A stretch of 64,000 bases of DNA, taken from the NCBI GenBank assembly GCA_963796055.1, contig CAWCKH010000004.1, positions 1,056,001 to 1,120,000 on the forward strand. The letters are read 5' to 3'. The notes under the pieces were generated by a model. It ran no database searches. It saw nothing but the letters and a program-made list of their open reading frames with translations, and was not told the DNA's origin. This stretch comes from an uncultured delta proteobacterium (lineage in GTDB: Bacteria > Myxococcota > Myxococcia > Myxococcales > Myxococcaceae). Each line of letters begins with the position of its first letter. The first letter of the stretch is position 1. Positions 9,758-63,111 of the stretch are shown in pieces. The position numbers and the translations under genes were made by a program.

Positions 9758-9939
9758 GTCAGGGCGGCCGCAGTCGAGGTCCAGGTCAGGGGTCCTCGGG
9801 CACTTATCGTCGGCGAGCTCAGGGCGGCCGCAGTCAGACCGTCAGGCGGCCGCAGTCGAGGTCCAGGTCAGGGGTCCTCGGGCACTTATCGTCGGCGAGC
9901 TCAGGGCGGCCGCAGTCAGACCGTCAGGCGGCCGCAGTC
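9758..9939 (+). repeat. Modular tandem repeat array (82-bp period, 5 cores GTCAGG(G)CGGCCGCAGTC)
   Basis: 9776-9857 is repeated at 9858-9939; the core is the reverse complement of the core at 61471-62003. Confidence 0.93.
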
Positions 9940-9969
9940 AGTGATGCCCTACAGGCTCCTGGAGCTCGC

Positions 9970-54738: not shown

Positions 54739-56316
54739 GTGACTGCGCGCCGCACCCCCATCGTCCAGCAGGCGGTGGCATCCCTGCTGGTCGCCGCGCT
54801 CGGCGGGTACCCGGTCCGAGCGCTCGCCCAGCAAGGCGCCCCGGCGCAGGGCGCTCCGGTCCAGTCGGTCCCTCCGCCGCCCGCCTACGCGCCGCCCCAG
54901 CCGGTGCCGCAACAGACCTACGCCCCGCAGCAGGCCCCTCCGCAGCAAGCCCCTCCGCAGGGCTACGCGCAGCAGCCGGCGCCGCCCCAGCAGACCTACG
55001 CCCCCCAGCAGGCCGCTCCGCAGCAGGCCCCTCCACAGGGCTACGGGCAGCAGCCGGCGCCGCCCCAGCAGACCTACGCCCCCCAGCAGGCCGCTCCGCA
55101 GCAGGCCCCTCCACAGGGCTACGCGCAGCAGCCGGCACCGCCCCAGCAGACCTACGCCCCCCAGCAGGCCGCTCCGCAGCAGGCCCCTCCGCAGGGCTAC
55201 GCGCAGCAGCCGGCGCCGCCCCAGCAGACCTACGCCCCCCAGCAGGCCGCTCCGCAGCAGGCCCCTCCGCAGGGCTACGCGCAACAGCCGGCGCCGCCCC
55301 AGCAGACCTACGCCCCGCCTGCGCCCGCGTACGCACCCCCGGCCGCAGCTGGCGCCGCGGTGGCCGCGCCCGGCGCTCCCGCCCCCGCCGCACCCCCGCA
55401 GCCCTATGCTCCGGCGCCCCAGGCTGCACCGCAGGGGTACGCCCCGGCGCCCGCGCCCCAGCAGCCGACCTACGCGCCACCTCCACCCGCCTACGCGCCC
55501 CCTGCCGCCGCGGGTGCAGCCGCCGGTGCCGCGGTGGCAGCGCCCGCGGCCCAGGCCCCGGCGGCGCCGCAGGGTGCCCAGCAGCCCGCCCCGGCGGCCC
55601 CCCAGCCCATGGTGCAAGACGCCCCCACGGCCGCTCCGCGCGTCCCACCTGGCGCAGTGCTGATCCCGCCGACCGCCGCACCCGCCCCGGCGCCCACCCG
55701 CTCGGGGGACGCGGACCTCGGCTCGGCACCAGCGCCTCCGCCCCCGCCGGGCCATGCGCCCAAGGCCCCGAGCGCCCAGAAGTCCGCTCCGGTGGACGAC
55801 CGGCTGATTCGCCTCGAGTGGCGGCCGGCGCACGTCGAGGGGAACCAGGGCTGGGGACCGATGGTGCAGGTCCCGGTGATGGGACCCTACAAGCGTCCGT
55901 TGAATGGGCGCTCGCTGTACACCGCTCTGGGTCGGAACGACCTGGCGGAGGAGTACGAGCGCCGCCTCGCCGCCAAGCGCATGATGGGCGTGGGCAGTGC
56001 GCTCCTGCTCGTCTCCGGCATCGCAGTCGGCATCAGCGCCTTCACGATCCACGGTTGCAACCCGGGTGACGCGAAGTGCTGGGACGACCGCGACGCGCAG
56101 CTCAGGTCGCGCTTCTACTGGTCGGGCGGCCTGGTGCTCGGCGGCGCCGTGCTCGGCATCGCCTCGAGCGCCTACAGTCCGCATCCAGTGTCGCGCGACG
56201 AGCTGATCGGCCTCATCCGCCAGCACAACGATCAGATCCGGAGCCAGCCCGGCGTCCACCTGGGCGCGATGGCGCTCCCGGGCGGCGGCGGCCTCAGCCT
56301 CGCCGGAGCGTTTTAG
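54739..56316 (+). CDS. Exported Pro/Gln/Ala-rich repeat protein with C-terminal membrane domain
   Basis: AGAGGAGG RBS, GTG start, signal ending ALA-Q, C-terminal LSLAGAF. Confidence 0.8.
   Translation: MTARRTPIVQQAVASLLVAALGGYPVRALAQQGAPAQGAPVQSVPPPPAYAPPQPVPQQTYAPQQAPPQQAPPQGYAQQPAPPQQTYAPQQAAPQQAPPQGYGQQPAPPQQTYAPQQAAPQQAPPQGYAQQPAPPQQTYAPQQAAPQQAPPQGYAQQPAPPQQTYAPQQAAPQQAPPQGYAQQPAPPQQTYAPPAPAYAPPAAAGAAVAAPGAPAPAAPPQPYAPAPQAAPQGYAPAPAPQQPTYAPPPPAYAPPAAAGAAAGAAVAAPAAQAPAAPQGAQQPAPAAPQPMVQDAPTAAPRVPPGAVLIPPTAAPAPAPTRSGDADLGSAPAPPPPPGHAPKAPSAQKSAPVDDRLIRLEWRPAHVEGNQGWGPMVQVPVMGPYKRPLNGRSLYTALGRNDLAEEYERRLAAKRMMGVGSALLLVSGIAVGISAFTIHGCNPGDAKCWDDRDAQLRSRFYWSGGLVLGGAVLGIASSAYSPHPVSRDELIGLIRQHNDQIRSQPGVHLGAMALPGGGGLSLAGAF
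54913..55317 (+). repeat. 78-bp coding tandem repeat x5.2
   Basis: cagacctacgcc at 54913, 54991, 55069, 55147, 55225 and 55303; unit QTYAPQQAAPQQAPPQGYAQQPAPPQ. Confidence 0.93.
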
Positions 56317-59478: not shown

Positions 59479-60741
59479 ATGCGCGAACACACCCGCATGC
59501 TGCTCGGGCTGGCCGTCGGCGCGGGACTGGGCCTGGTGGCCAGGGCCCTGGCCGGGGATGCACCGTGGCTGGCGTGGACCCTGGCCAACGTCACCGGTCC
59601 CATCGGCCAGGCCTTCCTCCGCCTTCTGTTCATGCTGGTGGTGCCGATGATCTTCTCGGCCCTGGTGATGGGGGTGGCCGACCTCGAGCTCCGGCACCTC
59701 GGCCGGCTCGGAGCGCGGGCGCTCGGCTACACCGTGGTCATCTCCACCATTGCGGTGCTGATCGGGATCGGCCTGGTGAACCTGTTCCGACCCGGCGAGG
59801 GCATGAGCGACGAGGTCCGGGCGCTGGCCCGCTCGAGCGTGGTCCCCAAGGCCGCGGTGGCCCCGAGCGACACCTCGGCGGCGTCGCTGCTGGTGTCCAT
59901 CATCCCGGACAACCCGGTGAAGGCGGCGGCCAGCGGCGACTATCTGGGGCTCATCTTCTTCGCCCTGGTGTTCGGCATCGCCCTGGGGCTGACCCGGGCG
60001 CCGGCCGCCGAGCGGCTCAAGGAGGTCATCGCCGGGCTGTACGAGGTCACCCTGGTGCTGATCAACGGAGTGTTGAAGGTCGCCCCGCTGGGCGTGGCCG
60101 CGCTGCTCTTCGGTCTGACTGCCCGGCTCGGGTTCGACGTCCTCCGCCAGCTCGCCGCCTACGTGGGGGTGGTGCTGCTCGGCCTCGCGCTGCACATGTT
60201 CGTGGTGTACTCGCTCTCGGTCCGCTTCTTCGGCGGCCGGAACCCGGTGCAGTTCTTCCGCGACGTGCGGATGGCGGCGATCACCGCCTTCTCCACCGCG
60301 TCGTCCAACGCCACCCTGCCCACCTCGCTCAAGGTCGCCGAGGAGGAGCTGCGGCTTCCACCCAACGTGGCCCGCTTCGTGCTCACCGCCGGCGCCTCGA
60401 TGAACCAGAACGGCACCGCGCTCTTCGAGGGCGTGACGGTCCTCTTCATCGCCCAGCTCTTCGGGGTTCATCTCAGCCTGGATCAGCAGATCGTGGTGAT
60501 GTTCATCTGCGTGCTCGGGGGGGTGGGCACCGCCGGGGTACCCGCCGGCTCGCTTCCGGTCATCGCGATGATCCTCGGGTTGTTCCACATCCCTCCCGAG
60601 GGTCTGGGGCTCATCCTCGGCGTCGACCGCCTGCTCGACATGTGCCGGACGACGCTCAACGTGGTGGGCGATCTCGCTGCTGCGGTCTACGTGGCCCGCG
60701 GCGAGCCGGTGGAGGAGGCCCCGGTGGCATCCACCTCCTGA
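59479..60741 (+). CDS. Dicarboxylate/amino acid:cation symporter (GltP-like)
   Basis: AFSTASSNATLP, MNQNGT and DRLLDMCRT motifs. Confidence 0.94.
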   Translation: MREHTRMLLGLAVGAGLGLVARALAGDAPWLAWTLANVTGPIGQAFLRLLFMLVVPMIFSALVMGVADLELRHLGRLGARALGYTVVISTIAVLIGIGLVNLFRPGEGMSDEVRALARSSVVPKAAVAPSDTSAASLLVSIIPDNPVKAAASGDYLGLIFFALVFGIALGLTRAPAAERLKEVIAGLYEVTLVLINGVLKVAPLGVAALLFGLTARLGFDVLRQLAAYVGVVLLGLALHMFVVYSLSVRFFGGRNPVQFFRDVRMAAITAFSTASSNATLPTSLKVAEEELRLPPNVARFVLTAGASMNQNGTALFEGVTVLFIAQLFGVHLSLDQQIVVMFICVLGGVGTAGVPAGSLPVIAMILGLFHIPPEGLGLILGVDRLLDMCRTTLNVVGDLAAAVYVARGEPVEEAPVASTS

Positions 60742-61376
60742 CCGCGGAGGAGGACCCACGCACAGCTGCCCATCCAGGCCACCGCCGCCAGCAGGGCGAA
60801 TCGCTGCATCGCGGGCACGGCCACCGGCAGCGGCGCCTCGCGGAAGGTGAGGTAGAGCCCCAGCTCGAGGGCTGCGAGCATCAGGGAGGCGGCGCCCAGC
60901 AGCGCCAGCACCGGGCGAGGGCGGAGCCCGCGCACCACCAGCGCCGCGGCCACGAAGCCCGGCCCCGCGCCAGAAAGCAGCGCCAGCGCGTGCGGCACCC
61001 CGCGGGTCACCGGCACCAGCAGCAGCCCGAGCGCGCCCAGCGTCCCGAGCACGCGCACCCGCCTCGCGGTGCGTCCCCCCACCAGCGCCGGGACCATCCA
61101 CCAGAAGAGGCACAGGGCGGCGATGAACGCCCACTCGGCCGCGCGACCCCAGGGCGCCCCCGGGTTGTGACGTCCGTTCACGGCCATGTCCCGGGCGATG
61201 TCGCAGAGGAAGTTGGCCCACAGCGAGTGGCCGGCGGCCTCCGGGTCCACCCAGTTCCCACCGGGGTACTGCGCCGCCCCGACCACCGTGGTCACCGCGC
61301 CCGCCACGAGCAGCGCCAGCAGCGCCGCCGCCAGGGCCGAGGTCCAGCCGCGCGGAGGCGTTGACGGAGCGGGCAT
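60687..61376 (-). CDS. Hypothetical membrane protein
   Basis: YPGG...NFLCD motif, about 6 TMs; 3' end overlaps the symporter. Confidence 0.7.
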   Translation of the reverse strand: MPAPSTPPRGWTSALAAALLALLVAGAVTTVVGAAQYPGGNWVDPEAAGHSLWANFLCDIARDMAVNGRHNPGAPWGRAAEWAFIAALCLFWWMVPALVGGRTARRVRVLGTLGALGLLLVPVTRGVPHALALLSGAGPGFVAAALVVRGLRPRPVLALLGAASLMLAALELGLYLTFREAPLPVAVPAMQRFALLAAVAWMGSCAWVLLRGQEVDATGASSTGSPRAT

Positions 61377-61470
61377 CTCCCCCAGTCCATCACGGGCGGA
61401 CCTGGAGGGGCTGTTTTCACCCCGAGGGGGAGTTCACCCTCAGTCAGCGCTGCCCCGCAGCCGCCTCGCC

Positions 61471-62003
61471 GACTGCGGCCGCCCTGACCTCGCCGACTGC
61501 AGCCGACCTGACGACACTCTAACCCGGACCTCGACTGCGGCCGCCCTGACCTCGCCGACTGCAGCCGACCTGACGACACTCTGACCCGACCTCGACTGCG
61601 GCCGCCCTGACCGAGCTGACTGCGGCCGCCCTGACCTCGCCGACTGCAGCCGACCTTACGACACTCTGACCCGGACCTCGACTGCGGCCGCCCTGACCGA
61701 GCTGACTGCGGCCGCCCTGACCTCGCCGACTGCAGCCGACCTGACGACACTCTGACCCGGACCTCGACTGCGGCCGCCCTGACCGAGCTGACTGCGGCCG
61801 CCCGGACCTCGCCGACTGCAGCCGACCTGACCGAGCTGACTGCGGCCGCCCTGACCTCGCCGACTGCAGCCGACCTGACGACACTCTGACCCGGACCTCG
61901 ACTGCGGCCGCCCTGACCGAGCTGACTGCGGCCGCCCGGACCTCGCCGACTGCAGCCGACCTGACGACACTCTGACCCGGACCTCGACTGCGGCCGCCCT
62001 GAC
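61471..62003 (-). repeat. Modular tandem repeat array: 19 x 18-nt cores with three fixed linkers (86-bp higher-order unit)
   Basis: Cores gactgcggccgccctgac and gactgcagccgacctgac; linkers ctcgcc, cgagct and gacactctgacccggacctc. Confidence 0.97.
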
Positions 62004-62768
62004 CTAGATGGCAGGCGCCGGGAGCTGGCCCGCCACCTCGAACTGCGCGCGGGGGAAGACCAGCCGGGTCCGCTCGAACCAGTCGAGCTTCTGCATCTCC
62101 ACCCGCTCGCGCGTGGCCACGCAGCGCCAGGTCTCCGGAGCGCGCGGGGTCTTCCGGGCCAGGGCGCGCGGGGTGAAGAGCGCCACGTTGGGTGCGCCGG
62201 CGAGGTCGCGGGCGCTGGGGTAGCGCACGAGCTCCACGCCGTCGGTCCGCATCTCGGCGCCGAGGCGCTGGGTGGCCTCGTATCGGCTCCTCGAGGCGAG
62301 GACCCGGTGGTGGGCCTCGAAGGGAGAGCGGGTCAGGTCCACCGCGGCGCGGGTGCGGACGTCGGCCCGGAACGCGCTCAGCTCCACCGTCAGCGGCGAG
62401 AGCACAGCCTGGGTCCCCTCCAGGAACAGCAGGCGGTAGTACGCGGTCTCGGCCATCGCCGTCTCCAGCGCCTCGCTGGCGTAGAACAGCGAGCGCTCGG
62501 CCCGGGTACCGAAGCGCGAACCGTGGGTCAGCGGCGGATGGCGGAAGGGCGTGAGGAGGAGGTAGTGCAACCCCTCGAACTCGGGACCCGCCGGCGCGGG
62601 CGGCTTCACCCGGTCGATCAGGGCCTCGAGGATCTCCTGCTCGGCATCCGAGTCGACCAGCCGCCGGGTGGCGTTCCGGTGCTGGGCCTCCACCACCCGC
62701 CACACAGGACCTTGGTAGGGGCGGAGGTTACGTTTTCCCCCGCACTGCATCCAGATACTCGTCGACAC
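62004..62768 (-). CDS. RES-domain toxin (NAD+ phosphorylase family)
   Basis: WRVVE, TPFR...GSRFG, AETAYYR and YPSARD supply the R, E and S residues. Confidence 0.92.
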   Translation of the reverse strand: MSTSIWMQCGGKRNLRPYQGPVWRVVEAQHRNATRRLVDSDAEQEILEALIDRVKPPAPAGPEFEGLHYLLLTPFRHPPLTHGSRFGTRAERSLFYASEALETAMAETAYYRLLFLEGTQAVLSPLTVELSAFRADVRTRAAVDLTRSPFEAHHRVLASRSRYEATQRLGAEMRTDGVELVRYPSARDLAGAPNVALFTPRALARKTPRAPETWRCVATRERVEMQKLDWFERTRLVFPRAQFEVAGQLPAPAI

Positions 62769-63111
62769 GCACCAGCCCCGCCACGCTCTGGATGCACTCT
62801 AGGGGCGCGGCTGACAGGTGCCCGTTCCGGGCGCGGAGCCAGGTCCGGGCCTTCTCCGCATCACCGCCCACCAGCGCGTCCAGGCTCCGGTAGAGCCGGA
62901 GGAAGAGCAGCGCCAGCTCGCCTTCCTTGCTGTCCGGGTCCACCGTGCGCTGCCCCGCGGCCAGCCTCGACCAGGAGGCCGCGCTCACCCCCACCACCCG
63001 GGCCATCGTCTGGCCGTTGAGGCCGAGGACCGATGCGGCGCGGATCAGCGCTCGGGAGAGCACCACCGCCGGGTCGGGCGCGGGAAGGGACGCTGAGGAA
63101 CGCCGGGCCAT
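62728..63111 (-). CDS. Xre/MbcA/ParS antitoxin (DUF2384)
   Basis: HTH (ARVVGVSAASWSR); RLYRSLDAL...WLRARN..L...P...YLDAVRG. Confidence 0.92.
   Translation of the reverse strand: MARRSSASLPAPDPAVVLSRALIRAASVLGLNGQTMARVVGVSAASWSRLAAGQRTVDPDSKEGELALLFLRLYRSLDALVGGDAEKARTWLRARNGHLSAAPLECIQSVAGLVRVDEYLDAVRGKT

Follow-up and report, generated by a model that had tools for sequence, protein, structure and literature searches.

In type III toxin-antitoxin (TA) systems, the RNA arrays are tandem repeats located upstream of the toxin gene, while BIMEs present an inverted arrangement of repeats. REP/BIME mosaics (PMC3184786) are extragenic and G+C-rich, combine a core with recurring linkers and are biased towards convergent gene ends. 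The pneumococcal BOX element (PMC3049150, PMC3184786) is a composite repeat that has a variable tandem inner module and is found preferentially between convergent genes; of the 58 cases where it overlaps a coding sequence, it supplies the stop codon in 36. Its TIRs, paired at both ends of an element with a predicted tight fold, resemble those of a resident IS, from which its mobilisation has been proposed. Regarding mobile elements, one member of the IS1182 family is described with a 16-bp TIR and a 4-bp duplication (PMC3281130), and IS91-type elements with one-ended transposition and a tetranucleotide boundary (PMC3189936).

The window considered here, i.e., the whole stretch of 64,000 nucleotides from an uncultured delta proteobacterium of the Myxococcaceae, contains a tandem array comparable in some respects with each of these systems. 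Like the RNA arrays of type III TA systems, it consists of tandem repeats adjoining a toxin gene, but it lies downstream and not upstream, a protein antitoxin is present, and the repeat occurs genome-wide while being absent from orthologous operons. Like BOX, the element is a composite repeat with a variable tandem inner module, often supplies the stop codon, shares the bias towards convergent genes and bears a TIR resembling that of a resident IS; unlike BOX, it has at most one TIR and no supported fold, is GC-rich and is strictly oriented to the gene, a relation in sequence not being expected. With REP/BIME mosaics, it shares its extragenic location, G+C richness, core with recurring linkers and convergent gene-end bias, whereas its cores are direct repeats devoid of a REP-type stem-loop and the Y1 transposases of the genome have repeats of their own. 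Like the IS1182 family (NF033551) and MITEs, it exhibits a TIR, CTAG flanks and 13 nt of left subterminal sequence in common with the resident IS1182, but it is distinguished by the lack of a transposase and of a left TIR, an unrelated spacer, local tandem amplification and polarity. It lacks the two TIRs of a textbook MITE as well as the hairpin and the RAYT gene of REP/BIME; the array is most likely an eroded IS1182-derived composite repeat, analogous to BOX and amplified locally by slippage, which would explain its apparent grammar.

The array behind the RES gene

On the minus strand of the window, an Xre/MbcA/ParS-type antitoxin gene (62728..63111; PF09722, PF20432) precedes a RES-domain toxin gene (62004..62768; PF08808), whose orthologues in most congeners are 87-91% identical and array-free. 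The array (61471..62003, minus strand), a tandem copy of a repeat family, begins at the first base past the TAG stop of the RES gene (62004-62006), the junction (62003..62007) being formed by CTAG (62004-62007), which includes this stop, and then the first element base. At its other side (61377..61470) comes an eroded 3′ end, i.e., linker L1 and a degenerate core with neither TIR tail nor distal CTAG, together with the spacer to the next co-directional gene (60687..61376), which belongs to no Pfam or NCBIfam family and follows RES in five congener loci too.

The 533 bp of the array could be parsed exactly into 19 cores of two types, A and B, and three linkers, L1, L2 and L3, with the core order ABABAABAABAABABAABA on the plus strand, where L1 precedes each B and each L3 lies between B and A. 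The first-pass annotation, which had described a 19-core array with this order and these linkers flush with the toxin TAG, holds base for base. Three of the 19 cores bear one mismatch each, one L3 is 19 nt long through a 1-bp deletion and one L3 carries a substitution. Read on the minus, i.e., transcribed, strand, the units measure 86, 86, 48, 86, 86, 61 and 62 nt before a last A core. With TRF scores reaching 796, the array is not a product of chance; as a control, the element HMM on the reversed genome gave a best match of E=0.65. No cluster in the genome has more cores, the next ones having 18 and 16. The two-core grammar proposed earlier stands within the array for the plus-strand order and the linker rules, but not for B as a core elsewhere: the six exact copies of B in the genome all lie inside this array, the B segment is a variable spacer at other loci, and B is not a family-wide core.

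None of the public contigs spans the array, and the number of 19 cores is as assembled. That the array or its unit number should be an assembly artefact is nonetheless very improbable, considering that arrays of the same build occur in independent congener assemblies (14 cores at locus L050), that the units bear private variants in a nested pattern, and that a 74-nt piece of public sequence, retrieved among four DNA runs providing short pieces only, is identical to 61708-61781 without any difference.

As for the growth of arrays, units have a median identity of 0.98 within arrays (123 pairs), against 0.77 when different loci are compared (741 pairs), and none of the 59 distinct long units is common to two loci, so that arrays appear to grow in place. 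A single 86-bp unit can give rise to all unit types of the RES array via deletions between repeated core sequence, with A and L2 lost in the 62/61 unit, and A and L3 lost at the common GTCAGG in the 48 unit; on this basis, the apparent rules would reflect the order of parts within the 86-bp unit and no code. The spacer of the RES array is 96% identical to that of the closest other locus and the element is absent from the RES sites of congeners; the repeat would therefore have inserted in this lineage, then been amplified and deprived of its 3′ end.

The window holds a second family member (9758..9962, plus strand), which is built of 82-bp units, has a TIR-like tail and directly adjoins the TAG of a gene for an OPT transporter; at this site, no element was found in 10 congener loci. 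Three further repeats were observed in passing, namely a 78-bp coding tandem repeat of 5.3 copies in a Pro/Gln/Ala-rich protein (54906-55316 of the window), which looks ordinary, an unrelated tandem array of 595 bp, built of two modules and with palindromic cores, just to the left of the window (G000:C4:1051922-1052516, G000 being the genome of this stretch), and, at locus L006 of congener G012, a different direct repeat with a period of about 100 nt after the RES stop.

Family distribution and the toxin-antitoxin question

In the genome, which is 98.5% complete, a core search returned 217 matches in 58 clusters, of which 36 were multi-core, and an HMM built from 11 monomers recognised 56 loci at E<0.05 while missing a few more diverged arrays. 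Strongly diverged arrays, seemingly of the same family, were observed at G000:C3:69983-70857, C4:2368363-2368790 and C4:2852019-2852490, the first two being flush with a TAG stop despite their divergence. A 21-mer of the element is present in 10 of 12 congeners and in none of 48 other relatives. Across 363 genomes, a 17-mer gave 94 matches in G000 and 1-56 in each of the 12 congeners; outside the genus (350 genomes), it gave at most 4 matches, and mostly 1, in 65 of the 350, i.e., near the reversed-pattern control. In the species collection, all 33 exact matches (33/33) fell in records titled Myxococcaceae, Myxococcota or uncultured delta proteobacterium. The search for both cores in this genome and its relatives, advised in the first-pass annotation, thereby found the repeat genome-wide and, judging from these matches, the family appears to be confined to one Myxococcaceae genus. 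In the literature, where coverage of subscription papers was limited, no description of the repeat was found; a repeat of 87 bp was reportedly described in Myxococcus xanthus by Fujitani in 1991, the 17-mer of the present element being at background level in the 350 genomes outside the genus.

Such a distribution bears upon the proposal of a dedicated RNA layer of Xre-RES, be it a type III-like antitoxin, a sponge or a processing array, to which the flush position at the toxin stop and the highest number of cores in the genome (19) would lend some credit. However, the same element lies behind 44 of the 1022 TAG-ending genes, a protein antitoxin is present, and a core was found downstream of RES in 0 of 10 congener loci and in 0 of 8 evaluable loci of other genera, in a survey where 20 of the 28 listed matches were fetched and 8 were not, and where L020, with only 9 nt readable, was left out. 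Twenty genes upstream of other arrays were picked by hand, and a secretion ATPase, a LysR regulator, transporters, kinases and hydrolases are among their products. Pfam families could be assigned to 14, none of a toxin-antitoxin kind, and the six others have no family at E 1e-8. Because arrays are genome-wide, host genes are unrelated and congener RES loci are core-free, a type III-like antitoxin layer is unsupported, and the reading of the array as an RNA layer of Xre-RES is largely refuted and extremely improbable. The link to the TA system was to fall, as stated in the first-pass annotation, if arrays occurred genome-wide without TA enrichment; they do occur genome-wide (56 HMM loci, 36 multi-core clusters), with no toxin-antitoxin family among the 14 assigned upstream genes. 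The other option then raised, a self-propagating extragenic element, is supported by a family dispersed behind unrelated genes, of which the array is one locally amplified copy, outside the toxin system. The array had also been set apart from CRISPR, rightly so, since its linkers recur instead of being unique spacers and Cas1 was not found in the 98.5%-complete genome.

Siting at stop codons and resemblance to IS1182

Genes were called with a custom codon-usage caller (4677 genes, 83% coding), so that the following counts of stops and orientations carry some error. The element follows TAG at 45 of 56 loci and TAA at 3 of 56, and starts at the first base past a called in-frame stop at 42 of 56. 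Genes trailed by a core comprise 44/1022 ending with TAG, 4/173 with TAA and 3/3482 with TGA, and GTCAGG is the commonest hexamer after TAG in the genome (40 genes). A C precedes the TAG in 29/44 cases versus 397/978 (p=0.0015), the remaining 15 of the 44 stop-flush copies in G000 showing NTAG rather than CTAG; with regard to a target consensus beyond the core, as for an IS110-type guided element, no upstream position beyond -4 is significant in these 44 sites, T at -5 being enriched in the congener set only, while the G000 signal consists of C at -4 only. As to orientation, 39 loci have the 5′ end alone on a sense stop and 3 have the 3′ end alone on one; both ends lie on stops at a further 3 loci and neither does at 11 (39:3, p=6e-9), with the proviso that the 3′-end test requires an intact CTAG and the 3′ count may be too low. 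The downstream gene is convergent at 39/56 loci versus 1530/4670 genes (33%). At three junctions (L022; L039 and L057; L060), the element of congeners lies behind the other gene of the convergent pair, again flush and in sense. No replichore bias was found (26:22). Of 40 congener loci, 11 (10 sites) are filled at the same G000 stop, with cores 0-3 mismatches apart and, in some cases, an array in one of the two species where the other has a short form; many insertion sites are thus old. Stop-codon readthrough was considered and rejected, as no CUA-anticodon tRNA occurs among 59 tRNAs and the element is kept after TAA/TGA at orthologous sites. Of note, nine tRNA genes are clustered within 2.5 kb at G000:C4:3118970-3121462.

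An intact monomer of about 103 bp is composed of TAG, core, a spacer of 41-44 nt, core, tail and CTAG; shorter forms of about 20 and about 41 bp exist, along with TIR-less forms running from CTAG to CTAG at six loci. The element is short, non-coding and dispersed over the 56 loci, with frame-breaking spacer indels and a presence varying among congeners. The resident IS1182 measures 1598 bp and is present in six copies (two cut by contig ends), with a 493-aa transposase above the NF033551 cut-off, a perfect 17-bp TIR and a CTAG flank at each assembled end. Over the right TIR plus CTAG of this transposase-encoding IS, the element tail is identical at 20 of 21 positions (p about 0.001). Allowing up to 3 mismatches in 13, a TIR-like tail could be recognised at 17 of 56 loci, the CTAG being intact at 10 of these, compared with 0.8% of random 45-nt windows, and these 17 are a floor as the classifier mis-anchored some loci. 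The first 11 bases of the element, with the preceding AG, are identical to the sequence just inside the left TIR of IS1182, giving a 13-nt identity (p 0.0015-0.0075 for three monomers, 0.033 for a fourth); against the right subterminal sequence, only a weak likeness was obtained (p 0.02-0.43), and nothing in the resident IS1182 matches the spacer. Since CTAG-GAG ends typify the IS1182 clade (23 of 28 related loci), the IS lineage would be the source of the tail rather than its recipient, though IS1182 could instead have taken the left 13 nt from the repeat.

No left TIR was seen on the element, neither in its own genome nor in 60 relatives at ≤1 mismatch, and the one metagenome pattern scan returned only two IS-type ends. 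One metagenome contig (L170) bears a two-TIR internal-deletion derivative of IS1182 on what looks like the TAG of a gene. In the 12 congeners, which are mostly fragmented MAGs, no full-length transposase was found, G006 showing one fragment. The lengths of filled versus empty sites fit a 4-bp CTAG duplication at L023, L048, L174 and L188, the last two within 1 nt; many "empty" orthologous sites have TGA/TAA ends or eroded-looking copies, so that a duplication may be read from these four pairs, the others being too diverged or eroded. The site C4:3406817 retains an extra AG, as expected if the present IS end underwent a deletion between the short repeats bounding its TIR. Called stops meet IS1182 ends three times on the left and three times on the right, 5 of the 6 copies (that at G000:C4:2582094-2583699, L071, and five more) having an end there, on a stop-codon CTAG. 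Apart from this, a 1.5-kb IS110-family element (PF01548), CTAG-bounded and with subterminal inverted repeats, was observed at G000:C4:2893884-2895397 (L221) and four more sites; it is itself polar, one end lying at a called stop in 4/5 copies, always after GTTCTAG, and the other end in 0/4.

Origin and possible role of the element

With a probability of roughly 0.6, the repeat is a MITE-like composite, non-coding and specific to the genus, which stems from an IS1182-family transposase with CTAG as target and was first mobilised by it. Insertion would have occurred into CTAG with a 4-bp duplication, and copies would persist where the CTAG is a gene stop, mostly between convergent genes, since no protein is disrupted there. 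The TIRs may have been lost via short flanking repeats, TAG on the left and CTA on the right, a deletion between which would lead to the TIR-less 5′ end and to the AGCTAG-ended forms, while slippage or unequal recombination between the direct-repeat cores would let each copy expand and contract; the RES gene would be a bystander that ended in CTAG. Against this, the left TIR, a defining feature of MITEs, is missing, and the 39:3 polarity is not expected from a DDE enzyme, given that the target is palindromic and that the IS itself meets stops with either end. An IS1182 origin explains neither the strict sense orientation at amber stops nor the lack of a left end. To our knowledge, one-ended transposition of IS1182 has not been reported, and no such report was found in a literature search with limited subscription coverage. 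It is conceivable, if quite unlikely, that the mobile element is asymmetric, a transposon end on one side being paired with a TIR-less end on the other, and that it owes its siting, in sense and at the first base after used amber stops, not only to survival but to targeting linked to transcription or termination, with growth into arrays as a later step.

The same polarity and missing left TIR, as well as the TIR-less CTAG-to-CTAG forms (six loci; L048), would be accounted for if the core repeat were an independent REP/BIME-like family spreading in a strand-polar manner, e.g., by an HUH enzyme that acts on the non-template strand where it is displaced just behind the stop and inserts 3′ of a TAG tetranucleotide, with the IS1182 TIR as a captured scar from an IS jump into the distal CTAG and its later deletion. 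Such jumps have parallels, as the 5′ CTAG of an existing element has received a copy of IS1182 in one case and of IS630 in another (G000:C4:1657521 and C4:1995458), and both Y1 and Y2 HUH transposases are encoded in the genome. This independent origin is nevertheless unlikely: no subterminal hairpin is present (ssDNA folding z +0.9, +1.1, +1.1, -1.1), the core containing only an 8-bp palindrome, with folding not above shuffles and no covariation or compensatory pairs in 77 monomers; both Y1 genes (the two PF01797 matches) are flanked by a different repeat family; replichore bias is absent; and the 13-nt identity with the left IS end is left unaccounted for. The second family beside the Y1 genes, of the GAGGTGTC..ACACCTC palindrome type (L061 and L062; G000:C4:2033391 and 1006610), is REPtron-like, and a five-copy DDE IS lies inside it each time (G000:C4:988448, 1000286, 1865295, 2011187, 3070196). 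Two further origins were discarded. For a retroelement, RVT_1 was searched for in the genome (98.5% complete) and gave no match. An IS630 parent, hinted at by an antisense frame ending on the target TAG and towards which a paper on IS870 is said to have pointed, does not agree with the two G000 copies of IS630, which end differently, nor with the G003 copy, which lacks a like end, and spacer indels break the antisense frame.

Whatever its origin, the element could now be kept as a functional 3′-end module: a protein might bind repeatedly around the palindromic 8-mer, the sense strand might carry a signal for mRNA stability or translation termination, or Rho might load onto the convergent transcript at a C-rich site. 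Near-invariant cores between varying spacers, the congener loci filled at the same stops with hardly diverged cores, a C-rich antisense strand (237 C versus 147 G) and GTCAGG as the top post-stop hexamer would agree with it. A generic 3′-UTR role of the array is possible, as its near-invariant cores are joined by a gap between the RES stop and the co-directional downstream gene widened from about 34 nt in congener G010 to 627 nt here. Conversely, host genes have no function in common, sites are freely gained and lost, and core conservation is inflated by the selection of loci through their core matches. Neither an Rfam match (E≤1) nor a promoter- or terminator-like site was found in the element, and RNA folding gives z of -1.3 in sense and -2.2 in antisense. 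With folding near that of shuffles and no covariation, a conserved RNA structure was rejected; among the 77 distinct monomers no compensatory change was found, only the invariant 8-mer pairing with its own second copy. Retention for such a role is judged improbable.

With the IS1182-derived repeat as preferred reading, a false lead is removed, as there is no RNA layer on Xre-RES. The family is genus-diagnostic and could be used to mark or type an uncultured genus of the Myxococcaceae. It is also a possible example of an IS end decaying into a BOX/BIME-like mosaic and, if the polarity results from targeting and not from selection, it would represent a safe-harbour strategy, namely insertion right behind a used stop codon.
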